A stretch of 64,000 nt of DNA, taken from the NCBI GenBank assembly GCA_031422315.1, contig JANOQN010000065.1:14-64013 (forward strand). The letters are read 5' to 3'. The first letter of the stretch is position 1. Each line of letters starts with the position of its first letter. This DNA comes from Rhodanobacteraceae bacterium (GTDB lineage Bacteria; Pseudomonadota; Gammaproteobacteria; Xanthomonadales; SZUA-5). Shown here in pieces: positions 1,971 to 51,332 of the stretch. Both the position numbers and the translations under genes were made by a program. The notes beneath the pieces were generated by a model, which made no database searches, was not told where the DNA came from, and saw nothing but the letters and a program-made list of their open reading frames with translations.

Positions 1971-2837
1971 CTACTCAAAGCCATTTTTAAATATGGCGTC
2001 GAGCTGCACGACTGGGCTTGCTGTTAGATAGGTTACTACCGTTGCGCTGGTGGCTGCAGCATTTAAGTCCACAGCGAAGGCAGACGAGGGGTCAGATGGG
2101 CTTTCAAATATCTTGTAGGCGGTAATTGCCGGCAGTCTTGGATCCGAAGTGGTGACTAAAATATTGTCTAAAATTCCGCTGACGCTAAACACCTCGCGCG
2201 TTGAGCTGATAATGTTGGAAAACAATGGTGAAAAATCGCGCATCACCCAGCCTGCGTAGCTGGCGTTTACCAGCGTCGATTGCGCAATCCCATGAGAGAT
2301 GCCGCTGGTGCTGACACTTTGATCTTCGGTGTAGTACTGAAGATTGAAATTCGGTGTGCCCGGATCAATCAATCCGGCGCGGTCGATCACGCTGCCGTCC
2401 AGTAGGTTGATGAAGCGCACGGCGCCGAAAGGCGCTGTACTGCTGAAGGTGATTTTATTTTCAAAGCGCTGTGGCCCGCTAAGCCGCGCTTCGGAAACCC
2501 AAGAAATAGGGCCGTTGGGTCCGCTCACCGTGCCGGTAGAGCGCACCGTTTGGGTTTGCGCAATGAAGACAATCGAATCGCTTGAGCGAAATAATTCCAC
2601 GGCACCACCAACCGCCCCAAGCTGCAAGAAGGGTATGAACCCGTCCACCAGGTCATAGTTTGACGTCACTGAGGGGATGGGGAACACCGCAGCAAAATTG
2701 GTTCCGCCGCCGTTTTCCACCGAGAGTTCAAATCTACCCGGGCCGCTGACGTTATTGTTTATCTGTATCGAGCCGGCAAACGCCGCATTGGGCATCAGGC
2801 AAAGCAGAGAAAGTGCGATCATTGTGGGGTGTTTCAT
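1971..2837 (-). CDS. Secreted hypothetical protein with C-terminal FKNGFE tail
   Basis: 288-aa ORF with an N-terminal signal peptide MKHPTMIALSLLCLMPNAAFA. It ends ..LDAIFKNGFE*. Its TAG stop (1971-1973) abuts the intron 5' end. Confidence 0.75.
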   Translation of the reverse strand: MKHPTMIALSLLCLMPNAAFAGSIQINNNVSGPGRFELSVENGGGTNFAAVFPIPSVTSNYDLVDGFIPFLQLGAVGGAVELFRSSDSIVFIAQTQTVRSTGTVSGPNGPISWVSEARLSGPQRFENKITFSSTAPFGAVRFINLLDGSVIDRAGLIDPGTPNFNLQYYTEDQSVSTSGISHGIAQSTLVNASYAGWVMRDFSPLFSNIISSTREVFSVSGILDNILVTTSDPRLPAITAYKIFESPSDPSSAFAVDLNAAATSATVVTYLTASPVVQLDAIFKNGFE

Positions 2838-2974
2838 GGCGTGCTCCGGCTGAAAGTCATTGGGTTGCGCAGAGGATTTGCCCTGCTCATCGACTTGAAC
2901 GAAATTTCCAGGCGTTTTGAACAGGCTCTCAGATAAAAGGTACAGTGATGTTTAGCTTGGAAATATTTGACTTT

Positions 2975-3030
2975 CTCGTTTGCCAAGGCAAACAAGTGTT
3001 TGATTGCCTCGTTTGCCAAGGCAAACAAGT
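2975..3030. promoter_or_regulatory. Two tandem copies (33-bp period) of a 23-bp palindromic motif upstream of the ECF sigma gene
   Basis: CTCGTTTGCCAAGGCAAACAAGT occurs at 2975-2997 and again at 3008-3030. Each copy has 10-nt inverted arms (CTCGTTTGCC / GGCAAACAAG, one mismatch). The motif lies immediately 5' of the candidate start codons 3036/3048. A 20/22-identical copy is at 62607-62628. Confidence 0.5.
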
Positions 3031-3035
3031 TCGCT

Positions 3036-3569
3036 ATGAAAATCGCTATGTCACCTAGCGCGCCGACGCCCGATGCGGAACTGTTCGAGTCGCTGTATGT
3101 GGAGCTAAAAGCCCGCGCCCAAAGTTTGCGCAGGCGTTTTGACGCACCCACGCTCAACACCACGGCCATCGTGCATGAGGCCTTCCTTAAGCTGGCAGAA
3201 AGCAAGCACCAAAGCGTTGATCGCGCACATTTGCTGCGCACCGCAGCGCTGGCTATGCGACAGATCCTGTTGGATCACGCGCGCGCATGGCAGGCACAAA
3301 AGCGCGGTGATCGAAAGCTTACGCACATCACGCTGACCGATCTGGAGCTGCAGGGCGAGAACGCGCCAGATCAGCTGTTCGAAATGCTTCAGGCATTGGA
3401 TCGACTGCAGCAAGTCGATGCTCGCTGCCACGAAACCTTTTTACTGCGCACCTTCGCTGGCCTTTCTTTAGAAGAAATTGGGCAAATGCAGGGCGTGTCG
3501 CACATGACGTGTTCTAGAGATCACCAAACTGCACGTGCCTATTTGCTGAGTGCGATGGATCCGGGTTGA
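3036..3569 (+). CDS. ECF-type RNA polymerase sigma factor (PF07638 / TIGR02999-like), with no adjacent kinase
   Basis: The translation ..LFESLYVELKARAQSLRRR..TAIVHEAFLKLAESK..LRTAALAMRQILLDHARAWQAQKRG..LSLEEIGQMQGVS.. parallels the sigma at 37927-38475 block by block. The start is uncertain (3036 or 3048). The ORF-track start 2967 runs through the palindromic repeats. Confidence 0.8.
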   Translation: MKIAMSPSAPTPDAELFESLYVELKARAQSLRRRFDAPTLNTTAIVHEAFLKLAESKHQSVDRAHLLRTAALAMRQILLDHARAWQAQKRGDRKLTHITLTDLELQGENAPDQLFEMLQALDRLQQVDARCHETFLLRTFAGLSLEEIGQMQGVSHMTCSRDHQTARAYLLSAMDPG

Positions 3570-3705
3570 GGAATGCACTGACTGCTGACGACTCCTGCCT
3601 GTAATTGGCGCGCAGATTTCCACAGGACATTCAATGAACCGAGCTTCAAAGATTTTCACCTTCGCTTAGCAAGCAATTTTTCTGAGCGCGCCGGTTTTTG
3701 CCGCG

Positions 3706-4585: not shown

Positions 4586-4671
4586 GGCAGCGGCGGAGGA
4601 ACACGCTGAACACGCACTAAGAAAAGCTTCGCGGTAAATCACCCACTTCGCACTGGTTTGCTTTGTGCTTC

Positions 4672-5640: not shown

Positions 5641-5778
5641 TACAAAATCCTGTGCGGCTGCGCGCTAGGTGGCGCAATAAAACTACTACTTGGCGGTTGC
5701 TGTCTGTGCGCAAAGGAACTTTGGGTCGACGGCGCGTAGCAACTCTTGTAACCGAGCTGATCAGTCAAGCTGTCAATC

Positions 5779-6573: not shown

Positions 6574-6673
6574 TTATTTTCCGTTAATTGACGAATCTAA
6601 AGAAGCTATTTTATTCAATTTTCGATGCCTTCATTACCGACGAAGCCCCCAACCACAATAGCTGTCCGCACCA

Positions 6674-7987: not shown

Positions 7988-7999
7988 GCAGTTAGCGCC

Positions 8000-11882: not shown

Positions 11883-12407
11883 ATGACCGCACATATCAAC
11901 AAATGGCTCGCCATTGCGTTAGCACTTTCAATACAAACTGCCCATGCAGGCGGCGCCTTTCCAGCGCTGACTTGCGATGCGTTACCTTCTGGACCCATTA
12001 CGCCGAACGTCAGTTTTGCAAGCGATATTTTTCCACTGTTGACCGATAACTGCGCAGGCGGCTGTGGCTATGCTTCGTGCATTAACTGCCACGCTGGGCC
12101 GGCAACCGCGCAAAACCGACTCATCGTTAACGGCGGCAGCGTTGATCTGACGGCATTGACGCTGCTGGATTTAAATCGCGATTGGGTTGTGCCGATTGAT
12201 CCGCGCCGCTCAAGGCTGTATGCGCACATCAATTGCAGCGCTACCGGTGGTGGCGTTTGGCGTATGCCGCTGATCGGCAATGCCGTGCAGCTGGCTAGGC
12301 AAGCGCTTATTTTTGATTGGATCAATCAAGGCGCGCGCGCAGATTTTGATAGCCAGCCTATTAGCGATGTGGTGTTTCGCGATAGCTTGGAGTCAATCCG
12401 CCGATAG
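11883..12407 (+). CDS. Secreted Cys-rich protein with a CXXCH heme-attachment-like motif
   Basis: Signal peptide MTAHINKWLAIALALSIQTAHA. Contains ..NCAGGCGYASCINCHAGP.. (CINCH = CXXCH). It ends ..VVFRDSLESIRR*. The start is moved to the Met at 11883. Confidence 0.65.
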   Translation: MTAHINKWLAIALALSIQTAHAGGAFPALTCDALPSGPITPNVSFASDIFPLLTDNCAGGCGYASCINCHAGPATAQNRLIVNGGSVDLTALTLLDLNRDWVVPIDPRRSRLYAHINCSATGGGVWRMPLIGNAVQLARQALIFDWINQGARADFDSQPISDVVFRDSLESIRR

Positions 12408-13804: not shown

Positions 13805-13806
13805 GC

Positions 13807-15270
13807 TTAGTCCTTACGGGCAAATAGCCACATAGAGCCGATCAGCGTCAAAAGCCCCGCCAAAATGCTCAATGAAATGCGATTCGCAAATGGCAACTGG
13901 ATGGCTGCGACCACGACGTTTTGCACGGCTGAATTATTGGTCAAATTCAAATCGTTGCTCGTGCTGATCAGTGTGGAGCTAATCACAGTGGAGCCAATTC
14001 CCGCGCCGCTTAAGGTGATCACACAGACGATGCGCGATTGCGCGGGCAGCGCGCCGATCGTCCAAACCAAGCTATTGCCTTGCAGAGCCGCGCCGCAGTT
14101 GCTGTTTTGAAATGCTAGCGGAAACGCAATGCTTGATGCCACCTGCACGCCCGCTGCCGCAAGTGCTGCGTCAGAATTCCGCACTTCCAAGCTGAGCGTT
14201 ACGGTTTCGCCGATGCCAATTTGGGTGCGGCTTAGCGTTTGCGTCAATGCCAAATCCGGGCCGGCGGCCTGCACGAATTCAATGTAACGGCCTTGCACGT
14301 CAGCCACCACGGTGCGCACCAGTGCGCCTGTGCTGCGATCTAACTCGAACACGCCTGCACCCGTGGTAGTCAACACATTGCCATTTGTCAGCTCATACAC
14401 GCCGCGATAGCCGCCGGTGCTGGCGTTATCTAAGCGTGAAATTTGCTGCCCGGTTGGAGTAAATTCGAATACGCCATCGGCATTCACGCCAAAGCCTGCA
14501 ACTAAAATATTGCCGTTACGCGCCTGCGCGATTTGCTGGGCAAAGCTGCCTGCGATGGCGAAATCAGCGATAAATTGCCCAGTGGCCGAAAGCCTGACAA
14601 CTTTACCGCCGTTCGAGCTTGATACTAAGTATTCGCCCGCCAACAGGGGCGGTGCATCACGCGGAATGCGAAACACATCAAACGGCGAGGTAAAACCCGC
14701 AATGGCGTTGGAGGCACTTAACGGCGTTAGCTGCGCGCCCGTAACGCTGTTAAATCGAGCGACTGCATTAATATTGCCGCCCGAACCTACTGTCACCAAT
14801 AAATCGCCGTTGCTAGCGTAGCCCATACCGCGATTGTTATCTAAAATCGCAGGGTTCAAGCCGCCAACGGGTGCTAGCGCGCCGAGATATGTACCTGAGG
14901 CCAGGCTGTATTGCTGAATCAAATCATTGACCTGATCGCTGATATAAATGCGGGTAAAATCTGGGCTGAGCAACGCGTTGATTGGGGTAGACAAGTTAAC
15001 CGCATCGGGCGGTACAAAATTACTATCGACCAACGCGCCGGTGTCAGGATCAAATGCCATGACTCGGTTATTTCGTGAATCTGGAATCAGCAATAGCCCG
15101 CGCGCGGGCAAAATTGCCAGCGCAGCTTGGCGCGCCAATGCGTCTGGCAGTGCAAGTTCAGCTCGTGCCTGAGTGCGCGCGCCGCTGAGTTCGGAGTCGG
15201 TCGCTTGCTGGGCTTGAGTCAACGTCGATAAGCAAATTGCCGTTGCTAGCAAAAATAGGGGTGTTTTCAC
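13807..15270 (-). CDS. Secreted repeat (beta-propeller-like) protein with a DUF11-like domain and a C-terminal hydrophobic anchor
   Basis: Signal peptide MKTPLFLLATAICLSTLTQA. A DUF11-like stretch reads LALTQTLSRTQIGIGETVTLSLEVRNSD. The C-terminus ..IQLPFANRISLSILAGLLTLIGSMWLFARKD* is a TM helix followed by a basic tail. Confidence 0.8.
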   Translation of the reverse strand: MKTPLFLLATAICLSTLTQAQQATDSELSGARTQARAELALPDALARQAALAILPARGLLLIPDSRNNRVMAFDPDTGALVDSNFVPPDAVNLSTPINALLSPDFTRIYISDQVNDLIQQYSLASGTYLGALAPVGGLNPAILDNNRGMGYASNGDLLVTVGSGGNINAVARFNSVTGAQLTPLSASNAIAGFTSPFDVFRIPRDAPPLLAGEYLVSSSNGGKVVRLSATGQFIADFAIAGSFAQQIAQARNGNILVAGFGVNADGVFEFTPTGQQISRLDNASTGGYRGVYELTNGNVLTTTGAGVFELDRSTGALVRTVVADVQGRYIEFVQAAGPDLALTQTLSRTQIGIGETVTLSLEVRNSDAALAAAGVQVASSIAFPLAFQNSNCGAALQGNSLVWTIGALPAQSRIVCVITLSGAGIGSTVISSTLISTSNDLNLTNNSAVQNVVVAAIQLPFANRISLSILAGLLTLIGSMWLFARKD

Positions 15271-27322: not shown

Positions 27323-29269
27323 CTACTCAAACCCATTCGCAAAACTATAGTCCGAAGCCGTTTGCGCCAACCGCGTACCAGTCAAACGCGCGGCAAGCGC
27401 AGACTGGCGATTCGGAAGTGCGCTACCCCAGTTGGGCACATCAATAGTGGGTACCGGATTACCGAGCGCTACTGGAACTGCCGGCGGCGCAGGGTTATCC
27501 GAGTTGTGTTGGCCGACCACAATCACGTGCCCAGCGGCTTGCGCTATGCCGACCAACTTGGTGTTATCGCCGCCCAAACCCGTTACTTGATTCCAGGCGC
27601 CCACCACCAATGAGCTATAGCGCAAGCTGGCTAAATCCGGCGAATAGACCCGCACGAACTGGTTCCAGGCGCTGGGCACGAACGGCGTTAGGTTTGGCCT
27701 GGGCATGGTTTGGAACGCATCGGTTGTGGTGACGGTGCGGCGCCCGGCGCACATCACTGCAATGCTGCCATCAGTTAGGATGCTGATTTCGCCGCTAAAC
27801 CCGGCATCCGCGCCGCAGCGCGTGGTGTTCAAATCAGGCCAGCCGCCATTTGGGTTTGGCCAACCGCCGAGCAAACCATCAGGATGTGCTGCGCCAAAAT
27901 TTGTGCTGCCATCAACCAGTTCGCCCAAGTAACTGGCAGCGCGAACGCGACCATCTAGCCCATAACTTGCTAGCCAGCTCAAATGAATATTGCCATTCGT
28001 GCCGGAGAAGGATTTTTGAAAGCCGACTAAACCCGGCGATGCGGCAATCTGATCACCCTTCCAAAAATTAATGGTGTTATTGCCGTGCGTGCGTGCCAAA
28101 ACTACAAGCCGATCGTTGGTGTGATCAAGCGCCAGCCCGTCAACATATTGATCGGGTGAGGAATTCGCTGCCGTCTCTTGATAAAGCCGATCCCACCACT
28201 TCAAGCTGCCATCAGCGCGCATGGCGACGATTGCCGGTTCAAAATCTGGATTGCCGCCTGGCAGCGTGCTTTTGGTGCTGTAGCCAAAGTAGATATCGTT
28301 ATTGCGCCGATCCACTGTAATCGCACCGACGCGCTGCGTTTGCGGGCCTTGGGAGTTGTAACCCGTGTAGCCTGGGCCTGTGGTTAAACAAGTATTAGTG
28401 CCGCTCAGCGCGCAAGCGCTGGCGAAAAAATAATCATCAGGAAAGCGGCCTTTTCGACCGGTATTGCCGTTCGCATCGATGCTAGTGGAATCGAAATCAG
28501 ACTGTGTAAGGCTGCGTAAACTGCCGCGCCGGCTGGCTTTCATGACCACCGCGCTGTAAGCCAATGCCGGTGTGCCGTTGTAGCTGCTGGCGGGTGTGCC
28601 GTCCCATTCGGTGTCCGATATCGTCCAGTGCGCGTGCCAATTATTGACGACATCGGGCCCGCCGGTAGCAGTTAAGCGCTGAATCGCGTGCCAATCGTTG
28701 GCGAAATAATTGCCCAGCGCGTACACCACTTTGCCATCGCCACCGACGTCCCAAGGCTGGCGCTCTTTATTATCGCCGCTGGCGCGCACGTTGACTAAAA
28801 AGCTCAGCGCCGATGGCACCGTGCCTACGAAATTGCCATTGAGCTTGGCCAAATAGTAACCGTTAGTTACCGCACCATCTCGGCTGCCCGAAATATAAAT
28901 GCTGCCAGTCGCCTGACCCGGCACTTCGGTGCTGCGGATTTTGAAGACATCGCGCACACTGCCCGCCGGGAAATGCACGACGCGCAAAATTTGCCCTAAA
29001 TCGGCGCTCACTTGCAAAACAAATCCGATTTGCCCTGGCGCGCTTGAATCCGCACCAGTTGCGGCGATGGCGACGCGTGGCACGCCTGCCGCAATCCAAT
29101 CTAAATTTTGCGCCTGCCCGGCGATCAGTAGCGTGCCATCCGATAGCGCATGAACGTCATTAAAGCGCTCTTGGCTATCGTTACCGGCGTAAAACACGCG
29201 ATTAGCGGCACTGGTAAATTCGCTAATGCTCGCGAACATAATGATCGACATCCAGAAAATACTTCGCAT
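27323..29269 (-). CDS. Secreted hypothetical protein (beta-propeller-like) with C-terminal FANGFE tail
   Basis: 648 aa. N-terminal signal [21 protein letters not shown]. It ends ..[10 protein letters not shown]. The last 15 nt, AATGGGTTTGAGTAG, nearly match the 3' end of ORF 1971-2837. Confidence 0.8.
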
Positions 29270-35236: not shown

Positions 35237-37183
35237 ATGATTCGCCAAATCTTTGCGCTTGCTTTGCTTTACACAAGTCAATCGCTGTGGGGGGCGACCT
35301 ACGTAGTCGACACCACGATCGACAACACTTCAACGCTGTTTTTACAATGCACCGCCGCGCCGAATAACTGCTCACTGCGGGGCGCCGTCCAAAAAGCCAA
35401 CGCCAATCCTGGGCCGGATGTCATTGAATTCAACGTACCCGCAATCGATGATGCAGGCTGCGATTCGGTTAGTGGCGGCTGCCGCTTCAACCTGTCAGGC
35501 ATGCCACTTAGCGTCTCTGAAGCCGTCAGCTTTGATGGCTATACGCAGCCCGGCGCGCAGGCCAATACGATTCCGGCGAGCCAAGGTGAAATGAATGCGT
35601 CTTTGAAGATAGAGCTTCTAAACGGCGGTGGCTCGGCAATCTTGGTTGCGCAGCAAAATGGGGGATTGATCGATGGATTATTGTCGGTGCAAGGGCTGAT
35701 TTTTGGCGTACATACCAACGCGATCGGGGCGACGAATCTTCGCAGCCTTACCGTACATGGCTGCTGGTTTAATTCGGCGTTAAACGGCCAGGTGGTCGAC
35801 GGTGGCGGCTCGCTAACTTATGTCACCAATGGCGATTCGGGCACCCCGTATATTGTCCGAATCGGCGGTCTGCTACCCGAACAGCGAAACTGGTTTCCCA
35901 ATGGCAATGTCAATCTAACCCCGCGTGCTTCTTTCAATCAATCGCCCACGTTCGATATGCGAATTGAAGGCAATCTTTTCGGGGCAGCCCGCGATGCTAT
36001 GACATCCGCTAGCGCAGCAGCGTTTCGATTCTATTCTGGGATTTCTTTTAGCCCACCGCCTGCCCCAAATTCGCTGCTGTTGATTGGCGGAACTGATCCA
36101 AACGCCCGCAATATTTTTGCCGGGATAGGCTATGGAATCGTCGGCGGCGGAGTAAATAACAACGTCGCAATTGTCAAAATCCAAGGCAATTACTTTGGCG
36201 TCGGAAAGGATGGCGTGACATCGATTCCGCTGCAATTCGGAGTCGACGCTGAGGGCGCAACTGTGGGTGGTCAAGCGCTAGGCGAAGGCAATCTTTTCGT
36301 GGGGAATCCATCGTTAGTCAAAGCAGCTTCAAAAGGCGTGACTAGCCCTGGACGTATGCGCGTGTTGGGCAATCGATTTCGCAACCACCTTGAGTGCGCG
36401 CTTTGTAATCCTGAGGAAGGTAGCACTTTCCTGCGCCCCAATGATCCAGGTGATGCAGATGCCTATGGATTCACCGGAAACACCCTACAAAACTATCCAG
36501 AAATTACCGCCGTTAGCCAAAACGGTGCGCAGTTAAGCGTTACCTATCGCGTCACTACCGCCTCTACAAATGCCGTGTATCCGCTTGATATTGAGTTTTA
36601 CAAAGCGGCTGGCTGGGAAGGCGAGGAAATTCTGGGACGCGATGTTTACAGCACGCCGGAGCTTGAAAAAACCGTTGTGCTGACCATCCCGGCGGGCACT
36701 TCGTTCAACGCGGCAAGCGATATGGTGTTGGCAAGCACCAACGCCGCCGCGCCTTTAGGTGGCTTCAGCCGGTTTAGCTGGCACCCTATCGTGTTGACAT
36801 TTTTGGGCAACGCGCCGCTGTCGTTAAACACGCCCACCAGCGTTCGCGTACGTGCACAATCGATTTGGAGCCCGTACACGCCGCGCGGCCAAGTCAGCAT
36901 TGATTTTGGCGGCTTAGGCGGTGGAACGCCCTGCACGCTGAATTTACAGCCCACGGCAAACCCCGGCGTTGCCGAAGGCAACTGCCAAATAACGGCAACT
37001 TCGATTCCTTTTAGCGGCATCTCGCAGCTGACTGCCAGCTTTCGCGTGCAAACCGGCATTCCCTTCGGCGGTGAAGATGGCCGAGTTGCCATCGCCATGC
37101 GAAATGCAGCGGTAATTCAAGACAACCTTTTTTGCCACGGTTTTGAAGATAATTCGAACGGTACTTGTAGGCCGTTGCCGTAG
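35237..37183 (+). CDS. Secreted hypothetical protein (parallel beta-helix-like N-terminal region), with an HGFE motif near the C-terminus
   Basis: Signal peptide MIRQIFALALLYTSQSLWG. The CSLRGAVQKANANPGPDVIEFNV motif is common at the start of beta-helix surface proteins. It ends ..DNLFCHGFEDNSNGTCRPLP*. Confidence 0.8.
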   Translation: MIRQIFALALLYTSQSLWGATYVVDTTIDNTSTLFLQCTAAPNNCSLRGAVQKANANPGPDVIEFNVPAIDDAGCDSVSGGCRFNLSGMPLSVSEAVSFDGYTQPGAQANTIPASQGEMNASLKIELLNGGGSAILVAQQNGGLIDGLLSVQGLIFGVHTNAIGATNLRSLTVHGCWFNSALNGQVVDGGGSLTYVTNGDSGTPYIVRIGGLLPEQRNWFPNGNVNLTPRASFNQSPTFDMRIEGNLFGAARDAMTSASAAAFRFYSGISFSPPPAPNSLLLIGGTDPNARNIFAGIGYGIVGGGVNNNVAIVKIQGNYFGVGKDGVTSIPLQFGVDAEGATVGGQALGEGNLFVGNPSLVKAASKGVTSPGRMRVLGNRFRNHLECALCNPEEGSTFLRPNDPGDADAYGFTGNTLQNYPEITAVSQNGAQLSVTYRVTTASTNAVYPLDIEFYKAAGWEGEEILGRDVYSTPELEKTVVLTIPAGTSFNAASDMVLASTNAAAPLGGFSRFSWHPIVLTFLGNAPLSLNTPTSVRVRAQSIWSPYTPRGQVSIDFGGLGGGTPCTLNLQPTANPGVAEGNCQITATSIPFSGISQLTASFRVQTGIPFGGEDGRVAIAMRNAAVIQDNLFCHGFEDNSNGTCRPLP

Positions 37184-37926: not shown

Positions 37927-38475
37927 TCAAACCCTCACCTCTAACTCTCTAGCCAGCCACAGCTTGGCATACAGCCAATCGCGCTTTGCAGTAGCCGGGG
38001 AAATCGCGAGCGCTTCGGCTGCTTCCTCTAATGACAGGCCAGCAAAGGCGCGCAGCTCGGCTAGCTTGGCGGCGCGTGGATCGTGTTCGTGCAGCCGAGT
38101 TAATGCGCTATCAAGTGCCAGCACATCGAAGGGGTTGCTGGCTTCGCTTGCATCTAAACCGCTAAGCGTGACGCGCTCACCCGCTGCGCGCTTGTCTGCT
38201 TTTTTAGCAAGCGCATAGTTCACCAAAATGTGCCGCATGGATTTACCCACCAGCGCTAAAAAATGCTGCCGCTGCGCCGGCACCACTGCGCCCTGCAGCT
38301 TGAGCCAGGCTTCGTGTACTAATGCGGTAGGCGAAAGCGTGTGATTGCGGCGCTCAGCGCTCAGGTGCTTTCGGGCAATGTGTTTGAGCTGCTCGTATAC
38401 CGCTGGCAACATCAAATCAGCATTGGGCTCTGCATCGGCAGCCATCTGATTTTCTTGCTGCGGTGGTTCGGTCAT
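37927..38475 (-). CDS. ECF-type sigma factor (PF07638 / TIGR02999-like), kinase-associated
   Basis: ..LMLPAVYEQLKHIARKHL..TALVHEAWLKL..HILVNYALAKKADKRAAG..LSLEEAAEALAISPATAKRDW.. Its ATG overlaps the upstream kinase stop as ATGA (38472-38475). Confidence 0.9.
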   Translation of the reverse strand: MTEPPQQENQMAADAEPNADLMLPAVYEQLKHIARKHLSAERRNHTLSPTALVHEAWLKLQGAVVPAQRQHFLALVGKSMRHILVNYALAKKADKRAAGERVTLSGLDASEASNPFDVLALDSALTRLHEHDPRAAKLAELRAFAGLSLEEAAEALAISPATAKRDWLYAKLWLARELEVRV

Positions 38476-41078
38476 GGCGCGTTTTTCCCTTTGGCGATTT
38501 GTTGCGCTTCCAGCAGTAGCGCCTGCGCTTTTTTAATCGGCGGCGCGTCCATGCCATACACCGCCTGCAAGCTTGTAATCACCGATGGTAATTCTTGCAG
38601 GACGCGCTCAGGCTTGCCTTGCGCTAGCCACAGCTTTGCGCGCTCGGCGGTCATTTCCAACAAGGATGGATTGTCAGCACCGTATGCCACCGGTGCGTCT
38701 GCAGCAGCGCGCTCCAGCAGTTTTTCAGCAGCGGCAAGCTCGCCACGTGCTAGCAGCAGCAAGCCATAGCGATGCCGCGCCGGAATCATCGTCCAAGCGT
38801 CCTTTTCGCGGCCGCTGTTGATAATTTCAAGGAAATTGCGCTCGGCTTCAGCGATTAAACCCGCCTGCCACTGCGCGGTGGCAAGCCAGCCCTGTGCGTA
38901 GTAACCAACGTCGCTGTTTTTATGCGCATCAAATGCCAGCTGCAGCGGTGCAAGCGCTTCATTTTCCCGATTAGCTTTAATCAATGCCACGCCTAACGCG
39001 ACTCGCGAATATAAAAGCTCAATGTGCTCAGGCTTATAAAGCTGTAGATCAACCGCTAGAGATTTTTCTAGCGCAATAATCGCAGGGCTGTATTGATGCA
39101 TGCCCATATACAGCACGCCCAAACGCGAGTAAGCACCGCTGACATCTGGGTGAATATCGCCCTTTTGCGCAAGCGCGCTTTGCAACAGCTGCTGCGCAAG
39201 CGGAATGTGCTTAAGCCCCGCCTTGCGCCATTTCACCACCACGCTCAGGTAAGCACGCGCGGCCGCATCTAATGCCTGCTGATCGCCCTGCTTTTCAAGC
39301 CGCGCCAAGGTCGCTTCAAACTGCGCTAGCGAAGGCTCAATTTGCAGCTGCATCTGCAAGATATGTGCGCGAAACAGCTCAGCCTGAGTTTTTTCCGATG
39401 CGCTCAGATACGGATTAACCAGTGCAGGCGAATCAAATTGCGCCAAAAACGCCTCAGGCGTCAGCTTATTAACGTGTTGTACGGATTGCCACTGCGCTTG
39501 CAGTGCGAACAGCTCCGAGCTAGCGCGAAGCTCAGCGTCTGGCTCGGCGATTCGGGCAAGCGCGGCGTTTGCGCGTTTAGACAGCATCAGCGCATCATCG
39601 GCGCGATCCAGTGCAAGCATCGCGCGCCCTAGCGTAATGTCCACCCGCGCGGCTACTGCTGGATCGGCTGGCATCTGGTAGTTGGCTTTCAATGCGGGCT
39701 CGATGACTCCCAAAACCGTCGGCGTTTTGCCTTTGGCCTGCGCTGGGTCAATGGCGGTCAGCAATCGATCTAAAAACTGCGTGACCGCTTGCGATTCCTC
39801 AGATTTACGCACCGCAATCACCCGCTGACGCGCCTCTTGCTGCGCGGCAATAAACGCCCAGCTGGCGCCGCCCAGAATGCTCGCGAGTGAGATCGCCGCC
39901 GCTGTACACAATGCAAGATTGCGGCGCACGAATTTCTTAGCAGCGACCCATTTGCTGGGCGCAATCGCCAAAATCGGCCGATGCGCCAACACATTTTGCA
40001 AATCTGCTGCCAGCGCATCCACGCTGCTGTAGCGCGCTTCCGGGGCTTTTTCCAACGCTTTTAGGATGATGGTTTCTAGATCACCGCGAATCAGCTTGCG
40101 AAATTGCGGCCAAAGCGCGCCGAGCGGGCTTTGCGCAAGCTTTGAAGGCGGCGTAGGCTCGGTTTGCACCGCCGCAAAGGCGAGCTCAGACGGGAATGTG
40201 GTGTTTTGCCCGTACGGCATTTGCCCGGTTAGCAGCTCGTATAAAATCAGCCCAAGCGCATAAACATCGGTTGCGGTGCTGACCGGCAGGCCTTGAACTT
40301 GCTCCGGTGTGGCGTAGCGTGGCGTAAAAAAGCGCTGTTCTGGCTGAGTGGCAAGCGCGGGTTGGGCATCAACATCCAGCGCTTTGGCGATACCAAAATC
40401 CAGCAGCTTAAGCACGCCATCACGCCGGACCAGCACATTGGATGGCTTTAAATCGCGGTGTACGATCAGCTTGCGGTGCGCATATGCCACCGCATCGCAG
40501 AGCTGCAAAAAGATCCGAATGCGCGCTTTAAAGTCCAGATTTTCGACAAAATTATCCAGCGGTACGCCATCGACCCATTCCATCACGAAATAGGGCCGGC
40601 TTTCGCTATCCAAGCCCGCATCAAACAAGCGCGCGATATTGAGGTGATCCAGCTGCGCGAGCGCGTGCTGCTCCTGGCGAAAGCGCAGCAGCGCGTGCGC
40701 GTGGCGAACCCCAACGCTTAAGCATTTGATCGCTGCGCGGCCACGAAATGCACCATCGTTGCGCTCCGCTAAAAAAACCTCACCCATGCCGCCTTTGCCG
40801 ATGAGCTCCAGCAGCTTCCAGGGCCCGATTTGATCGCCCTGCGCCACGCTATCGGAAGCTTCCGCTTGCTCAAGTGCGGCCTGCGCCTGCTGTAGGGCTG
40901 GCGCTGCGGTCTGGGTTTCCCGTGCGTGCAAGAGTAGCGAAGCCAATTCGGCTTTTTCCTCAGGCGTAGCGTCAAGCGCTGCAATAGCCGCTTGCCACTG
41001 CGCTGGCGCAAGTGCCAGCAGCGCCTCCAGATTGGATTTCAATACGGCCTGATTGATATCGGACATCACGGTGCTCAA
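38472..41078 (-). CDS. Ser/Thr protein kinase with one TM segment and a long TPR-like C-terminal domain
   Basis: Hanks-type motifs IGKGGMGEVFLAE, AIK, HRDLKPSNVLV, DFGIAK and TPRYATPEQ. The TM segment is ..LALCTAAAISLASILGGASWAFIAA.. About 470 aa of helical-repeat sequence follow. Confidence 0.92.
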   Translation of the reverse strand: MSTVMSDINQAVLKSNLEALLALAPAQWQAAIAALDATPEEKAELASLLLHARETQTAAPALQQAQAALEQAEASDSVAQGDQIGPWKLLELIGKGGMGEVFLAERNDGAFRGRAAIKCLSVGVRHAHALLRFRQEQHALAQLDHLNIARLFDAGLDSESRPYFVMEWVDGVPLDNFVENLDFKARIRIFLQLCDAVAYAHRKLIVHRDLKPSNVLVRRDGVLKLLDFGIAKALDVDAQPALATQPEQRFFTPRYATPEQVQGLPVSTATDVYALGLILYELLTGQMPYGQNTTFPSELAFAAVQTEPTPPSKLAQSPLGALWPQFRKLIRGDLETIILKALEKAPEARYSSVDALAADLQNVLAHRPILAIAPSKWVAAKKFVRRNLALCTAAAISLASILGGASWAFIAAQQEARQRVIAVRKSEESQAVTQFLDRLLTAIDPAQAKGKTPTVLGVIEPALKANYQMPADPAVAARVDITLGRAMLALDRADDALMLSKRANAALARIAEPDAELRASSELFALQAQWQSVQHVNKLTPEAFLAQFDSPALVNPYLSASEKTQAELFRAHILQMQLQIEPSLAQFEATLARLEKQGDQQALDAAARAYLSVVVKWRKAGLKHIPLAQQLLQSALAQKGDIHPDVSGAYSRLGVLYMGMHQYSPAIIALEKSLAVDLQLYKPEHIELLYSRVALGVALIKANRENEALAPLQLAFDAHKNSDVGYYAQGWLATAQWQAGLIAEAERNFLEIINSGREKDAWTMIPARHRYGLLLLARGELAAAEKLLERAAADAPVAYGADNPSLLEMTAERAKLWLAQGKPERVLQELPSVITSLQAVYGMDAPPIKKAQALLLEAQQIAKGKNAP

Positions 41079-41811: not shown

Positions 41812-44016
41812 TTATGGCGCGCTTTCAAAGCCATCTTTGAAATCGCCGTTCGCACACTGATTTGAAAAGATGCACCTGACCCATTCAGGCCGATCAATAA
41901 ACGGATTGCGATTGCCTTGGCTGGTGAACACGATGCCGTTGCGCTCGACTTCACGCGCATCGGGTGGATCTTGCTCGTGCCATGCAAGTAACACCGATTT
42001 CAGGCCCATGTAAGCCGGTGATGTGCTAGTAATAACGATTTGACTGGCGTCATCAGTCACAATTAAATCTGGCTCATTCTGGCCGTTGGTTCCACCATGC
42101 ACGCCGCCTTCATAGCGCAAATCCATGTACAAAATAGCGCGCGCCATATCGCCTTTGCGTTTGTTCCACACTTCAAAACGACCAGTGTTGCCATCCGGTC
42201 CAAACACCCAGTTGCTATTGCCCGGATAAACGCCAGTGCCACCACCTTGGTTCGCGTTGATATCAGTCGCTTTTTCTGCGCACTGCGCTGGAATTGCGCA
42301 GTTGCCGTAGGGCTTATTGCCACGATCTGAGTTGTATTGTTTATCGGATAAATACAGCATGTGGCAGTCGGTGTAAGGTGGGTTAGGAAGCCCTAAATTT
42401 CCGGTTGGGCTGCCAAAACCTAGTGAATTTGGCCAGGTATGTTCGCGGTTATATCGCCCCGGTGTTACCGTGCCGTTATCGCGATCAGTAACTTTGGCAA
42501 AGCTCTGGTTTTTATACACATCCAACACGCGCGTGGCGTTGTCAGGATTGCTATCAGCAGCCTCCAAAATCGTCCAAGCGTCAAAATAGCTAAACACTGC
42601 GTGGTCGTCGATTAAGTTGTGCAGATTGCTTCGTAAGAGTGCGCTATCGGCGGCAATGGCTGGCGTTATGGCGCTGTAGTAATTCGCAGCGGAGGGCGTG
42701 GTGGTGAACTGGAAGCTAAAATTCGCGCCCATCGGGGTTGGCGTGCCGTCTTGATCGCTGACATTGGCGGCAATAACGGTAAAGGAGCAGAGCTCCCCGT
42801 TTTGCAAATTGGCAGCCGGGTCAACCACATACGAACTTGGACCGCCAGTCACGACGGCAGCTAAATTATTACCGCTTTGTGCGCAGCTCAACGTGTACCA
42901 AGTGCCGGTAGCGGTGACAGGCTCGCTAAAGTTGACCGTGACATTACTGGTGAGTGAAACGCCGGTTGCGCCATTTCCGGGCGCTGTGCTCGTAACAATC
43001 GGCGCGGTATCGTTTGCAACCGTAAAATTGACCAGCACATTGGCAGCCATCGCATCTGGCGTGCCGTCTTGATCTAAAACATTGGCAGCAACAATCGTCA
43101 ACGTGCAGGTTTCGCCAAACGCAAATGCCGGGCTAGGTGCCAGCGTAAACGTGCCCGGCCCACCGGTGACAACTGCGGTATGCGCGCCGCTGACGGCACA
43201 GGAAATCGTAAACCAATTGCCGGTTACGGTTACCGCTTCGCTAAAACTGACGCTTAAATTGCTGTTGAACGCTACACCGGTCGCGTTATTTGCCGGGCTG
43301 GTAGCGTTAACCGTAGGTGGCACGTCGGTCGCTGAGCCGCCAATGCTGATATCGTCGATGCCTATGTATTCGTCATTCATCGGCGCATTGCTGGTCATAA
43401 TTCGAAGCTGCACTAGCGCTTGATTTTCCACCGCAACCGGCAAAGTGATCGATACCGGCGTTACGAGCGTTGCTAAGCTAGGCCCACTAGAGGCATCTGC
43501 AACAAAGGCCGCTGGGATATTAGTGAACACGCCGGTACTGCCCAAGCGATACTGCAATGCTACAGGTTGAATGACGTTATCAACAGAATCATCAAGATCG
43601 CGCAGAACATAGCTCATGGGGATTGATGCGCGCCCTAAGGTATTGATACTGATCAATAAATACGGCGCATCGGCAGTACCGCTACCTTGAAAACCGACAA
43701 CCGCCGTCGGTTCCAATTCGGCAATGCCGCCGGATGGCAGTAACCCAGGTGCGCCTAATTGATTCGCCAAAACATTTGCGACTGGCGCAGCATCTTCCAA
43801 GAGTATGGTTTGCGGATCTGTACCGGTGCCACCGGTCAAAGCATCACCGCGCGCACCCACAATACCTGGCACGCCACTCCAATCATTGTCAGCAAAAATC
43901 AGTGCCGGATTGCTCCAGTTTTGATTAAACGGCAGCGTTTGCGGCGTAGTGTCGGCGTAGGCTGCGGTGCTTATTAAGCTCAGCAAGGCTGTGCATAAAA
44001 TAGTTCTAATTGTCAT
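41812..44016 (-). CDS. Secreted nuclease: N-terminal domain, two tandem Ig-like (SbsA/Big_5-like) domains and a C-terminal endonuclease I domain, with a FKDGFESAP tail
   Basis: Signal peptide MTIRTILCTALLSLISTAAYA (start moved to ATG 44016). Two ~95-aa repeats read ..SPANNATGV..VSFSEAVTVTGNWFTISCA.. and ..APGNGATGV..VNFSEPVTATGTWYTLSCA.. Endonuclease_1-like motifs YNREHTWPNSLGF and ..NRNPFIDRPEW.. are present. Confidence 0.85.
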   Translation of the reverse strand: MTIRTILCTALLSLISTAAYADTTPQTLPFNQNWSNPALIFADNDWSGVPGIVGARGDALTGGTGTDPQTILLEDAAPVANVLANQLGAPGLLPSGGIAELEPTAVVGFQGSGTADAPYLLISINTLGRASIPMSYVLRDLDDSVDNVIQPVALQYRLGSTGVFTNIPAAFVADASSGPSLATLVTPVSITLPVAVENQALVQLRIMTSNAPMNDEYIGIDDISIGGSATDVPPTVNATSPANNATGVAFNSNLSVSFSEAVTVTGNWFTISCAVSGAHTAVVTGGPGTFTLAPSPAFAFGETCTLTIVAANVLDQDGTPDAMAANVLVNFTVANDTAPIVTSTAPGNGATGVSLTSNVTVNFSEPVTATGTWYTLSCAQSGNNLAAVVTGGPSSYVVDPAANLQNGELCSFTVIAANVSDQDGTPTPMGANFSFQFTTTPSAANYYSAITPAIAADSALLRSNLHNLIDDHAVFSYFDAWTILEAADSNPDNATRVLDVYKNQSFAKVTDRDNGTVTPGRYNREHTWPNSLGFGSPTGNLGLPNPPYTDCHMLYLSDKQYNSDRGNKPYGNCAIPAQCAEKATDINANQGGGTGVYPGNSNWVFGPDGNTGRFEVWNKRKGDMARAILYMDLRYEGGVHGGTNGQNEPDLIVTDDASQIVITSTSPAYMGLKSVLLAWHEQDPPDAREVERNGIVFTSQGNRNPFIDRPEWVRCIFSNQCANGDFKDGFESAP

Positions 44017-46498: not shown

Positions 46499-46530
46499 GG
46501 TTAGCGTTCCTGGGTGATCGAATGGATGAG

Positions 46531-47718: not shown

Positions 47719-47860
47719 AGGAATAACGCCTTGATAGTGAAGCCGCATGCTCGCTTGTCAGTTTGAATGCGTCAATCTGCAAAACTGTAGAGAATGTGCA
47801 AATGACCGGTTTTTCTGGCTGTGGAATAGCAGGCTGGCTTGAAAAATCGCTCGCCCCCAG

Positions 47861-48670
47861 TTACGGCTGCGCAGAAATAACCTTTTCAATCCAATCTTTG
47901 TAATGGCTAAGGCGCACATTGCAAGTGAATTGGCCATAGCGCCCGGGCGTCCTAACAGCGCTTTGTGGATCTGCCCAAGATGTTAGTCCAGCCAACAACC
48001 AATCGTTCTTCTGAGCTTTGATGAGAATTGGCCCACCGCTGTCACCGCTTCCTGACCCGCCCTCAAGCGGCAGGGCGCCCGAGGACTTATCGAACCTATA
48101 GCAAAACCATCGATCATGGGCGCTGGTGACTTTGTTGTACGCACGGCGAAGCTTAGTGCGGTGGGAACTACTAAACCCATACCCAGTGACGCCGTTACCG
48201 GTAGCGCCTTTTCCGATGATCTTGACGATTTGGCCGAATTCGGCTTCGCTCTTGTAAACCGCGACAGCAGATACGTCATTAACGGGCTGCGCCAGTTTTA
48301 GCAGTGCGATGTCATCTGAGGACGCTAGCTGTGCCCTAAAAAGCGTCCAATCCCAAGTCTCCAGCGCATAATCAAGCAGTTCTTGCGGCGGCTTTTGATA
48401 GCCAGGGTGTATCACGATACGCTCAACCTCTCTGGCTTTCCCGTTAAGCGTTATCTGCTTAATTTCAGATTGCCAGGTGATCGCATGAGCGGCGGTAATA
48501 ACCCACTGCGGAGCAATCAGAACACCATGGCCTTCGCTGGGCAGATCAACAAGCGCAAGAAACTCAGACGCTGGAACAAGGTATTTTGAGTCAGCAACGT
48601 CATGTCGAATGACAATCGCGCTTGCGTTGAAAGACACCGCGAGCAGTGCGGGCATTAAGAGTCGGTGCAT
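47861..48670 (-). CDS. Secreted trypsin-like serine protease (S1 family)
   Basis: Catalytic-triad contexts WVITAAHA (His), DIALLKL (Asp) and GDSGGPIL (Ser). Signal peptide MHRLLMPALLAVSFNASA. Confidence 0.9.
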   Translation of the reverse strand: MHRLLMPALLAVSFNASAIVIRHDVADSKYLVPASEFLALVDLPSEGHGVLIAPQWVITAAHAITWQSEIKQITLNGKAREVERIVIHPGYQKPPQELLDYALETWDWTLFRAQLASSDDIALLKLAQPVNDVSAVAVYKSEAEFGQIVKIIGKGATGNGVTGYGFSSSHRTKLRRAYNKVTSAHDRWFCYRFDKSSGALPLEGGSGSGDSGGPILIKAQKNDWLLAGLTSWADPQSAVRTPGRYGQFTCNVRLSHYKDWIEKVISAQP

Positions 48671-48807
48671 GGGCGATTCCTTTGGTAGTGGCTTTGAGGG
48701 CTAACAACCAAAGTAATGCGCCAATTCGCTAGAAGCAAGGATTGAATTCAGTACGTCCACGGTGCTAGTGAGCTTTTCCTATACTTTAGGCGTTTCTTCG
48801 CCCAAGA

Positions 48808-48898
48808 CCCCAACGTTCGCGCTAAGCCGACGCCGCGCGGCAGATTTCATTTGAAACACTAAACGATTTCGGCAGCGGGTTACAGCCAAACGTTAGCG
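48808..48898 (-). other. attC-like recombination site
   Basis: The minus strand reads CGCTAAC-GTTTGGCTGTAACCCGCTGCCG-[loop]-CCGCGCGGCGTCGGCTTAGCGCGAAC-GTTGGGG. The inner arms are imperfectly complementary. It shares the GTCGGCT(T/G)A block with the sites at 26166-26262 and 27272-27314. Confidence 0.5.
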
Positions 48899-48904
48899 CT
48901 TGCA

Positions 48905-49010
48905 TGTGTGCGCTCCGAAACGTTTTGATGCGCTGAACTTTAAGTGCCGGAAAAGTTACTGCGAAGCCGGTTTCGGCGCAAGCCGCTAAACCAACTTTCA
49001 AAGCAGGCAA
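48905..49010 (-). pseudogene. Possible truncated hicB-like antitoxin remnant
   Basis: The translation ..VGLAACAETGFAVTFPALKVQRIKTFRSAH.. resembles the N-terminal ..EEGGFTVTCPALPGC.. strand of HicB antitoxins. The frame then runs straight into the attC-like site and no DNA-binding domain follows. Confidence 0.3.
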
Positions 49011-49018
49011 AGTGCGCC

Positions 49019-49198
49019 CTATGGTTCAGCAAGAATGTCATGACGGCCGATATCGCGAGGTACGGCTTGGCTGATCTTGACTAGGATGTGGTGGCTACCG
49101 TGTATGCGGTTGACCAGCCAACCTGCGGCCTTGAGCTTCATGATGGCTTCTTTGTCTGTTATGGGCCTCAGGATGTGTAGGGAGCGATCTAATCTCAC
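49019..49198 (-). CDS. HicA-like small ORF (possibly C-terminally truncated toxin)
   Basis: Not in the ORF track because it is under 60 aa. The translation is (V)RLDRSLHILRPITDKEAIMKLKAAGWLVNRIHGSHHILVKISQAVPRDIGRHDILAEP*, which fits the HicA/YcfA pattern L+..+.KE.I..L...GW...R..GSHH. The GTG at 49198 overlaps the stop of the upstream gene as GTGA. An alternative ATG is at 49141. Confidence 0.45.
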   Translation of the reverse strand: MRLDRSLHILRPITDKEAIMKLKAAGWLVNRIHGSHHILVKISQAVPRDIGRHDILAEP

Positions 49199-49935
49199 TG
49201 TTGATTTTTTGCAGAATGGGCAGCACTTCCCCAGCCGGTGAGTGCAAAACGCGGCTTATCAACAAAAGCCGGAACCGCGCTCACCGCTTGCGGTTTGGGT
49301 ACGCGAAACAGTGCCATGGCATTAAAGCTCGGCGTAAACGCGCGCTCGATGTGGCCGTCAGCGTCGATAAACTGCAAGATTCCGCCAAAGTCAGCGCGCC
49401 AGTTTTGCGTCAAATTGATGACAAAAGCCGCACGCCGCAAACCGGGTGCATGGCTGTGATCGTGCCCAGTCAAAAAGTGCCCGGCACGATAGCGCGATAG
49501 CTGTAAGTCAGTGTCTTCCAGATCGCCTATTTGGGTGATTTGCTTCAGAAGCGCGATAAACGCTGCACTGCGCACGGATTGCAGTGCTTGCGCCAATATC
49601 GGATCGGTTAGCAGCCCCATGCGCGCCCGATCATCTAGCGGATAGCGCTCATACAAATACTGAAAACCCGAACGGGCTTGCGCGTGCACCATGGCAAGAA
49701 ACGCTTCGGATTTATCCACGGGCAGTTCGCTCATGGCTTTGGCGTCAAATGCTTTATGTGCATCGCCAATTCGCGTGACTAAATTCCACTCAGTCCAGGA
49801 CTGCGCGCGCGCCAGCACGGCCTTAGCGAATTCAGTGGACAGCACATTGGGCACCAGCACATAGCCGTTGCGGCAAAACGATTGCGCCAGTTGCTCAATG
49901 TCTGTTCGGTGCGCCAGCGTGCAGCTTGATTCCAA
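49195..49935 (-). CDS. 2OG-Fe(II) oxygenase family protein (prolyl-hydroxylase-like)
   Basis: ..LSRYRAGHFLTGHDHSH..RRAAFVINLTQNWRADFGGILQF..ALFRVP.. shows an HxD...H facial-triad context. The TTG start at 49935 is preceded by AGGA. Confidence 0.8.
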   Translation of the reverse strand: MESSCTLAHRTDIEQLAQSFCRNGYVLVPNVLSTEFAKAVLARAQSWTEWNLVTRIGDAHKAFDAKAMSELPVDKSEAFLAMVHAQARSGFQYLYERYPLDDRARMGLLTDPILAQALQSVRSAAFIALLKQITQIGDLEDTDLQLSRYRAGHFLTGHDHSHAPGLRRAAFVINLTQNWRADFGGILQFIDADGHIERAFTPSFNAMALFRVPKPQAVSAVPAFVDKPRFALTGWGSAAHSAKNQQ

Positions 49936-50141
49936 ATTTTATCCTGCCTAGTCAATCAAAAGAGCGTTAACAGCGCGTCGCTCGTTGAAGCGTGCCGAAA
50001 ACGAAGATATCCAGATCCAGCGCTCACTTTTGGCGACGGCAAATTTGCGTGCGCTGGGCTATTCGCATCGGTCGCAGGCGAAAGTGCTTCTGATTGGTGC
50101 AGGCGGATTGAGATCAGCAGCGGCACAGCCAGCAAGTTTTG

Positions 50142-51332
50142 CTACCAAACAAAACGGTCGTTCGCGCGCGCGGGCACGATGGTTTCAAAGCCGTCTTTAA
50201 ACTCAAGCGGCACCTCAGCCGATTCAGGCACAGGCGAAATACCGCGAAACGCTTTGTTCGGGCCAGCATTGACGACACTGGCAAACAAAATTGCTGGCGC
50301 TACGTTGTAGCCCGCGGTGTCAATCCCGACCACGATGTTTGCGCCATCAGATACGGTGGCCAATGCGACGCCAGTTCCGTTAACATTGCGACCGATCAGG
50401 CTGCGCGGATTTAGTAATGGACCGGCTGGCTGGGCAATGGTGGTTACCGTGCCCGTGAGCGTCCAAGTGCCGCCAACGAGGGACCACTTTTGCACGCTAT
50501 CGGTTGCACCATCGTCCGCGATATAGGCAGTATCAACACCGCCGACAGTAGCATCGAGATCAGCAAACACAAAACCATAAAAAGACGGACCGCCAATCGT
50601 CGGAAATCCAGCAATCGAGGTCATTACCTGACCGGAAGTAGTCGGCAACCCAGTGCCAACTTGAACAAGCCTAGAAAAAACTGCGCCACTGGCATGCGAT
50701 ACCAATAAATTTCCGCGAACGATGTCGATTTGGCGAAGATTGGTAATCGTGGTCGAAATTTCCGTGGACGTGGTTTGCCCTAAGGTAGCATGGCGAACAC
50801 CGCCAGTGCCGCCAACGGCCCAAAACCCGGTGCCGTCAGTAACTGCGCTGCGCGCGTTAAAACCGTTTGCGAAATCCGTCAATGCCGTGCTCGTATCAAT
50901 TACACCTGCGCTAGATACCCGAGCAATGACGCGCGGAACGGTAGTTGAGGCGGTACCGCTTATCGTTCCCACGCCGGTTGGCACTAAATTACGTGCATAG
51001 CAGGTAAGCGCTAAATACTCACCGTTTGGACTGCGCGTCATCAAGCCTTCGGATGTGGCCGTACCGCTGGCGACGCACTGGCGTTGTAAATCGCCATCCG
51101 CAGCAATCGTGGGCATCGCAATGGATTGCACCAGCGTGGCACCACCCGCCTGAGAAATGCTGTATTCATCCAAAAACACGGCATTTCCGGTGGGCACGAG
51201 CAGCTCGGTTCCATCGCTGACTCGGTAAACGACCAAATTGCCTGGCGTAAAGGCGGCTGCAGCTGCCTGTGTGCTAGCGAAAACGCCAGAGGCTACAGTG
51301 AAGGCTAAAGCGATTTTTGAAACTTGAAGCAT
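50142..51332 (-). CDS. Secreted hypothetical protein with an FKDGFE motif near the C-terminus
   Basis: The start is moved to ATG 51332 (MLQVSKIALAFTVASGVFASTQAAAAA signal peptide). ..FTPGNLVVYRVSDG.. follows. It ends ..PLEFKDGFETIVPARANDRFVW*. Confidence 0.8.
   Translation of the reverse strand: MLQVSKIALAFTVASGVFASTQAAAAAFTPGNLVVYRVSDGTELLVPTGNAVFLDEYSISQAGGATLVQSIAMPTIAADGDLQRQCVASGTATSEGLMTRSPNGEYLALTCYARNLVPTGVGTISGTASTTVPRVIARVSSAGVIDTSTALTDFANGFNARSAVTDGTGFWAVGGTGGVRHATLGQTTSTEISTTITNLRQIDIVRGNLLVSHASGAVFSRLVQVGTGLPTTSGQVMTSIAGFPTIGGPSFYGFVFADLDATVGGVDTAYIADDGATDSVQKWSLVGGTWTLTGTVTTIAQPAGPLLNPRSLIGRNVNGTGVALATVSDGANIVVGIDTAGYNVAPAILFASVVNAGPNKAFRGISPVPESAEVPLEFKDGFETIVPARANDRFVW

Follow-up and report, generated by a model that had tools for sequence, protein, structure and literature searches.

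Six secreted proteins encoded in a 64,000-nucleotide stretch of DNA from a Rhodanobacteraceae bacterium (assembly GCA_031422315.1, contig JANOQN010000065.1, positions 14 to 64,013; hereafter the window) share a short C-terminal tail, for which 169 non-redundant examples give the nine-residue consensus [DE]-x-[ILV]-F-[AKR]-[ND]-G-F-[ED]. Because the tail lies at the exact site where relatives of its carriers have surface-sorting signals, it is probably a small export or sorting tag. On balance, the sequence comparisons favour a modular, lineage-specific C-terminal trafficking tag for exoproteins that does without a transmembrane (TM) helix. The first-pass annotation of this DNA had reported six such tails on Sec-signal proteins of otherwise unrelated sequence, and a six-frame scan recovers all six; a Sec-type (SPase I) signal peptide, called heuristically, starts each of the six open reading frames (ORFs). 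The carriers and their tails are as follows.

1971-2837, minus strand: Protein A, 288 aa; signal peptide, a domain of unknown family, then ..LDAIFKNGFE at the stop codon; tail A (FKNGFE, stop) at 1974-1991, minus strand.
27323-29269, minus strand: Protein B, 648 aa; signal peptide, beta-propeller-type fold and tail; tail B (FANGFE, stop) at 27326-27343, minus strand.
41812-44016, minus strand: Protein C, a nuclease of 734 aa; signal peptide, two Big_5 Ig-like domains, Endonuclease I, then ..GDFKDGFESAP at the stop codon; tail C (FKDGFESAP, stop) at 41824-41841, minus strand.
50142-51332, minus strand: Protein D, 396 aa; signal peptide, a beta-rich domain ending ..AFRG, then ..LEFKDGFE followed by TIVPARANDRFVW and the stop codon; tail D (FKDGFE plus 13 aa) at 50184-50201, minus strand.
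35237-37183, plus strand: Protein E, 648 aa; signal peptide, an N-terminal CSLRGA, then ..DNLFCHGFE followed by DNSNGTCRPLP and the stop codon; tail E (FCHGFE plus 11 aa) at 37130-37147, plus strand.
11883-12407, plus strand: Protein F, 174 aa; signal peptide, a small Cys-rich protein ending ..DVVFRDSLESIRR at the stop codon; tail F (FRDSLESIRR, stop; diverged) at 12375-12392, plus strand.

No hydrophobic helix follows the tail in any of the six, as the first-pass annotation had also observed, and Pfam and NCBIfam searches of the six carriers find recognisable domains in Protein C only. The CSLRGA of Protein E resembles the CSLREA motif, and although E itself has no NCBIfam match, its homologue at L010:8176-9732 has a sub-cutoff match to CSLREA_Nterm and ends ..VFSDGFEP. 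The His of the E tail is echoed by FAHGFE in orthologues of Protein B, and Wenzhouxiangella ORFs with a C-terminal region closely similar to that of Protein F end ..IFTSRFD plus six residues at the same place (L015:15446-16027 and L032:15336-15893). Judged by these relatives, the variant tails FCHGFE and FRDSLE are backed by their own families, and the looser tail of Protein F is a true but diverged member. A seventh match, FGSGFEG before a stop at 48681-48698 on the plus strand, was rejected as chance; it is part of a 65-codon ORF that runs antisense to the beginning of the trypsin-like gene (47861-48670).

The strict motif F.[DN]GFE occurs four times in the six-frame translation of the window, against 0.016 expected from amino-acid composition, and 300 codon shuffles of the window give a mean of 0.017 and a maximum of one. 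These strict matches lie 0-13 residues before a stop, all in signal-peptide proteins, and each of the five best matches is within 20 residues of the end of its ORF (probability under random placement ~9e-8). A wider Lysobacterales sample of 441 kb was assembled from the window and 24 of the 80 loci returned by a GTDB species-genome scan with the Protein B alignment, and was searched in all frames for [FYW].[DNHS]GFE, counting ORFs of 100 aa or more; all 24 matches are 19 residues or fewer from the stop. Two further Rhodanobacteraceae-type loci (~47 kb) add one terminal tail each, bringing the total to 26 matches in ~490 kb of Lysobacterales DNA with none internal. The same pattern does not occur at all in 941 kb of DNA from other phyla (Bacteroidota, Myxococcota, Acidobacteriota and others). 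The enrichment in secreted proteins that had been proposed as a check is also seen in the sampled loci, where a crude gene call and a signal-peptide heuristic place a signal peptide in 23 of 28 tail ORFs and in 60 of 327 other ORFs (odds ratio 20, p = 8e-12); the tail ORFs without one are truncated or frameshifted, or are one false match.

Independently of the locus scan, we searched metagenome contigs for the exact DNA pattern encoding FANGFE followed by TRR, for which chance predicts stop codons and TGG in a ratio of 3:1. Among the matches listed, of which there are at least 121, a stop follows in 109 and TGG in 12, and 80 of the 109 with a stop close a long ORF. Positions that formed no part of the query also follow the consensus in those 80 ORFs, with I, L or V at -1 in 72 of 77 and D or E at -3 in 53 of ~75, and neither pattern is seen upstream of the TGG matches or those in short ORFs. 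A second tail gene with a different variant is present on 14 of the listed FANGFE contigs. With a slightly looser pattern, the metagenome-selected loci have 99 terminal copies versus nine that lie more than 20 aa from a stop or whose ORFs are truncated where the contig ends. Chance or composition as the origin of the tail is ruled out by the window counts, the locus scan and this stop-to-TGG ratio together.

Excluding the B genes, tail genes occur about once per 25-40 kb in the sampled DNA of the clade, and the window, with six in 64 kb, is denser than the rest; by extrapolation there may be on the order of 100 tail genes per genome. The signal-peptide proteins of the window that have no tail are mostly of usually periplasmic types (YceI, DUF1838, an FAD oxidoreductase and a glyoxalase-like protein); the trypsin-like protease and a DUF11 protein likewise lack it. 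The latter, a secreted protein with DUF11 repeats (13807-15270, minus strand), ends ..IQLPFANRISLSILAGLLTLIGSMWLFARKD, a hydrophobic helix and basic end like those of a classical TM-type anchor, although without an NCBIfam sorting-domain match, so that the same genome also uses the membrane-anchor type of signal.

Conservation within families is concentrated in the tail itself. Across the 169 tails the first Phe of the core is present in 95%, Gly in 93%, the second Phe in 99% and the final Glu in 87% (positions 0, 3, 4 and 5), while at linker positions -8 to -4 even the commonest residue stays at or below 25%. The tail stops at the Glu in 49% of cases and has 1-13 Pro-rich residues after it in the remainder. 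The 120 best homologues of Protein B include ~60 orthologues, 50-91% identical, that close with [FY]-x-[NDHS]-G-F-E and 0-7 residues after it; the 5-15 residues that precede the tail are unconserved. About 100 of 120 homologues of nuclease C end in [ILV]-F-x-[ND]-G-F-[ED], and in the forms of 1150-1220 aa, which have extra fn3 domains between the nuclease domain and the tail, the tail is still found at the C-terminus; there is no internal strict copy in any of the 120. Close homologues of Protein A end [FL]RNGFE, and families A and D resemble B and C in keeping the tail after an unconserved linker. Two other origins of the tail, as what is left of the first strand of a downstream domain since lost or as a linker motif internal to proteins, are ruled out by the lack of internal strict matches in the 441 kb of loci and the 120 nuclease homologues, and are countered too by its remaining terminal when extra domains are inserted.

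At least ten unrelated folds carry the tail, among them the nuclease, an S8 subtilase with PA and fn3 domains, an M28 aminopeptidase, and beta-helix and beta-propeller proteins. Codons of the tail differ at synonymous sites between copies and the downstream DNA is unrelated, which together point to the peptide, rather than a DNA element, as what is selected, and rule out a DNA-level repeat or a tail encoded by a terminator. Structure predictions also set the tail apart from the domains that it follows. AlphaFold2 models built from family alignments are of high quality for Protein B (pLDDT 88, pTM 0.90; the best PDB match is the CylK fold, with beta-propeller proteins next) and for Protein D (pLDDT 87, pTM 0.85), and pLDDT falls below 50 in the tail regions of both, at residues 637-648 of B and 375-396 of D. 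The tail is thus predicted to be a free peptide that is not packed against the domain, and its being part of the fold is ruled out for these two proteins, whose models are otherwise well predicted.

The tail is confined to the order Lysobacterales in the DNA sampled, with carrier loci from Rhodanobacteraceae, Dokdonella, Aquimonas, Tahibacter, Pseudolysobacter, unclassified Lysobacterales and Wenzhouxiangella. The nearest relative of Protein B in the genome database is in a Rhodanobacteraceae metagenome-assembled genome (MAG), at 67% identity, and the window DNA itself comes from freshwater-sediment metagenomes. Wenzhouxiangella has its own version of the tail, in which all six examples, from three families, read F-x-[DS]-R-[FW]-x, with Arg in place of Gly; in the other Lysobacterales Gly is found at that position in 27 of 32. 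A concerted change of this kind across unrelated cargo is what would be expected if the tails share a trans-acting reader. At one Aquimonas locus (L012, 9059-12738, in a MAG) three overlapping ORFs each have the same B-type end, ..RIFGNGFE before the stop, reflecting either a tandemly duplicated 3' gene end or an artefact of assembly.

What the tail replaces is apparent from homologues in other taxa. The distant B homologues of Archangium and Polyangium (Myxococcota) stop at the domain boundary, ..AHLRF, with nothing after it, and longer homologues (~700-760 aa), which the genome scan puts in Bacteroidota, have the C-terminal domain (CTD) of type IX secretion (T9SS), PF18962, at that boundary. 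In family D the Lysobacterales-type proteins run on from ..AFRG to F-x-N-G-F-E; homologues named Humisphaera, Tepidisphaeraceae, Phycisphaerae and others continue instead with VPEP, a hydrophobic helix and RRRR (PEP-CTERM, PF07589), and further longer homologues with PF18962. What comes after the family A junction is the tail, PEP-CTERM, or IPTLSEWG with a helix and RRR (IPTL-CTERM-like). In four of the four families examined, the tail stands at the domain boundary in place of PEP-CTERM, IPTL-CTERM-like and T9SS sorting domains. The same picture emerges for the choice-of-anchor families, which are named for occurring with alternative C-terminal anchors. NCBIfam choice-of-anchor Q directly precedes the tail in six proteins of related loci, four of which score above the curated cutoff, and one further protein has choice-of-anchor J upstream of its tail (residues 996-1150 of 1,621); by its position the tail is the alternative in choice-of-anchor proteins here. 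Other tail proteins have partial similarity to models of myxosortase-, rhombosortase- and T9SS-dependent M36 peptidases. Terminal-only position, conservation among orthologues, clade restriction and interchange with sorting domains all support the first-pass suggestion of a shared C-terminal sorting or processing signal.

Several additional short motifs were observed at the C-termini of these families. In family D, ~9 variable Pro-rich residues separate the tail from a conserved terminal R-[IF]-[LV]-[WF], a second and family-specific motif that is RILW in the homologues (P0122-P0133) and RFVW in the window (50142-50183, minus strand); the ETIVP that starts this extension is common to some nuclease homologues, which end FKDGFETIVP. 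The tail-less B homologues P0056, P0060 and P0067 have a different conserved tail containing Cys (..GPCRMKRCTLP, ..ECRLKRCTLP and ..GPCQRRRCP), and their best-matching locus is L016, from a Luteimonas MAG. Protein E of the window likewise has ..GTCRPLP after FCHGFE (37148-37180), and there may be a second short C-terminal motif, containing Cys, besides the tail described here. P0382, an 810-aa homologue of the Protein A domain, ends ..FFADGFESGELSAWDVVMP, the tail core followed by S-G-x-L-S-A-W, possibly a longer motif that is related to this one and serves in other taxa.

The tail appears to be undescribed so far. No model covers it in NCBIfam searches of 36 tail proteins or Pfam searches of 16, and we found no description in the literature searched, although such an absence is not proof of novelty; the earlier statement that no named signal has this consensus is borne out to this extent. 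Small prokaryotic C-terminal sorting signals are tripartite, combining a signature motif with a transmembrane segment and a cluster of Arg (10.1101/2023.06.07.544157). The tail resembles these signals (PEP-, IPTL-, GlyGly- and MYXO-CTERM, and LPXTG) in being a short motif at the extreme C-terminus of signal-peptide proteins, in having many unrelated cargo per genome and a sporadic, clade-restricted spread, and in its position after choice-of-anchor domains, with direct swaps in families A and D. However, it has neither the hydrophobic TM segment after the motif nor the terminal Arg/Lys cluster. Having the first of the three parts only, it is not a member of the tripartite class, in agreement with the distinction from PEP-CTERM, GlyGly-CTERM and LPXTG drawn at first reading, and a precursor built in this way cannot be membrane-anchored for an intramembrane or inner-membrane enzyme. 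We know of no cognate enzyme for the tail.

The T9SS CTD, a 70-100 aa Ig-like beta-sandwich restricted to Bacteroidota, is also a TM-less C-terminal signal for outer-membrane export and attachment on Sec-exported folded proteins, and it shares its junction with the tail in the longer B and D homologues. The tail differs in being 6-9 residues long and predicted to be disordered, in having no match to PF18962 or TIGR04183, and in its gammaproteobacterial, non-Bacteroidota hosts; to our knowledge Gammaproteobacteria have no T9SS. The first-pass contrast in length thus holds, as does that with substrates of the type I secretion system, whose C-terminal signal is uncleaved and often accompanied by RTX repeats and which lack an N-terminal signal peptide; the tail proteins differ from them in having Sec signal peptides (all six in the window) and no RTX domains. 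Another relevant comparison is with the C-terminal YxF or beta-signal of outer-membrane proteins (OMPs), which is recognised by the DegS PDZ domain and BAM and is likewise a short aromatic C-terminal peptide of exported proteins that is read in the periplasm. The tail nonetheless ends in Glu and not Phe or Trp, and its cargo is soluble and non-barrel, with beta-propeller-type models for B and D. A possible link to an extracytoplasmic function (ECF) sigma factor is common to both, but the candidate sensor beside the tail genes is a Ser/Thr kinase with tetratricopeptide repeats (TPRs) and not a PDZ protease.

Substrates of type II secretion (T2SS) resemble the tail proteins in that they have Sec signal peptides, are folded soluble hydrolases and occur in gammaproteobacterial hosts. 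We know of no linear T2SS targeting motif that has been established. T2SS substrate selection is still described as poorly understood; its recognition step is generally taken to be structural, with dependence on the GspC PDZ domain shown only for a fold in VesB (PMC12369372). Cargo of GlyGly-CTERM and MYXO-CTERM also cross the outer membrane by T2SS (10.1101/2023.06.07.544157).

We propose that the tail would mark Sec-exported folded exoproteins for a step after the inner membrane, either crossing of the outer membrane or holding at the surface, or both. It would be read as an exposed peptide by one shared, co-evolving periplasmic or outer-membrane receptor; since the tail has no TM helix or Arg cluster, that reader would not be a sortase-type enzyme of the inner membrane working on a membrane-anchored precursor. 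The most economical route would hand a folded periplasmic intermediate to T2SS or to an unknown translocon, with surface attachment possibly afterwards. The more specific proposal that the tail is a linear outer-membrane export signal with a single co-evolving receptor is tentative, and we think it unlikely in that exact form. Several points weigh against a trafficking tag. The signal-peptide and gene calls are crude heuristics; half of the tails have 1-13 extra Pro-rich residues, so a free C-terminal carboxylate is not essential; and T2SS is generally thought to read structural and not linear signals (PMC12369372). No partner gene, including a sorting enzyme, was found in the window or by synteny. 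Moreover, the swap with anchors indicates an equivalent position and probably an equivalent destination, and not an identical mechanism.

An aromatic and acidic peptide of this kind could alternatively hold the protein non-covalently on the outer membrane after an export step that is independent of the tail, through insertion of Phe at the lipopolysaccharide interface with cation bridging by Asp or Glu, or through a surface receptor. Such retention would suit the two invariant Phe residues and the I/L/V with flanking acidic residues, the flexible linker before the tail, and the replacement of anchors that end in surface attachment (PEP-CTERM, IPTL-CTERM and T9SS CTD). We consider it doubtful, however, because a stable anchor of six to nine residues would be very small, and the Gly-to-Arg switch between lineages fits a protein receptor better than a lipid.

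The genes neighbouring the tail genes bear on a different role, that of a periplasmic signalling ligand. ORFs from the 25 Lysobacterales loci, and then from ~140 tail-containing loci, were clustered, and the only recurrent neighbours other than cargo are a pair encoding an ECF sigma factor and a TPR Ser/Thr kinase, plus generic ABC, RND and GGDEF proteins. The pair is present in the window between tail genes E and C (37927-41078).

38472-41078, minus strand: Ser/Thr kinase with an N-terminal Pkinase domain, one TM helix at ~387-412 and a C-terminal TPR region of ~450 aa at ~415-868.
37927-38475, minus strand: ECF sigma factor of the TIGR02999 type, adjoining the kinase.

Homologous kinases are found in 13 tail-containing loci, usually with a TIGR02999-type ECF sigma factor and often directly adjacent to the tail gene (as in L105, L133, L175 and L184). 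Besides the window, the pair was noted at L010, L020, L022, L103, L105, L131, L133, L145, L147, L175, L184 and L197, where its tail-gene neighbours include CSLREA/choice-of-anchor Q beta-helix proteins and others. As a single TM helix follows the cytoplasmic Pkinase domain, the TPR region would be periplasmic. TPR domains bind acidic C-terminal peptides in other systems, and the kinase could therefore be a tail sensor in the way that DegS senses OMP C-termini, where binding of YxF ends by its PDZ domain leads to sigma-E activation; here a tail sensed by the TPR region would report unexported cargo to the partner sigma factor. The pair could equally be a local regulator of the tail genes.

As an account of the tail itself we find signalling a little less probable than retention. 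Kinase density is ~10-13 per Mb in tail-bearing DNA versus 2 per Mb in other phyla, a figure that comes from loci all chosen for tail genes and is not a genome background, and this sampling bias makes the kinase link a lead only. ECF sigma genes commonly lie beside the secreted-protein genes that they control, so the proximity could be a matter of regulation alone; the majority of tail genes are without a kinase close by, and a ligand role leaves the swap with sorting domains unexplained. Signalling and trafficking roles are compatible with each other.

The remaining genes of the window offer no convincing partner, in keeping with the first-pass view that no partner enzyme can be identified there; the candidates considered were the trypsin-like protease, a 2-oxoglutarate oxygenase and DUF proteins. 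The protease (trypsin fold, 47861-48670) is of some relevance to a further explanation, that the tail is a recognition site for C-terminal proteolytic maturation or turnover, either a degron or a processing site with, for example, trimming after Glu, by which the Pro-rich extensions of 1-13 residues could be reduced to a common ..GFE end. We regard this as improbable. Half of the tails already end at Glu, some carriers are not enzymes and would have no evident reason to be activated, a degron common to ~100 exoproteins, with sorting domains in its place in other phyla, would make little sense, and the protease is not conserved beside tail genes. An intramolecular structural element, a by-product of DNA repeats, or chance is effectively refuted, for although the motif is short and its N-G pair could form a tight beta-turn, it occurs on ten or more unrelated folds with tail pLDDT below 50 in two families, its codons differ, the flanking DNA is unrelated and the statistics exclude chance.

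One other feature adjoins a tail gene. A group II intron occupies 114-1935 of the window (minus strand), with Rfam RF02005 domains D1-D4 at 1712-1935 (176 bits) and a reverse-transcriptase ORF at 114-1607, and is inserted ~36 nt downstream of the stop codon of Protein A.

How folded periplasmic proteins are chosen for export in Gram-negative bacteria is a long-standing question, and a probable sorting tag that lacks the membrane-anchor parts is of interest in this regard, with a credible chance of something more fundamental. Lysobacterales abound in sediment, soil and wastewater, and the tail would improve the annotation of their exoproteomes; if transplantable, it could serve as a very small secretion tag.

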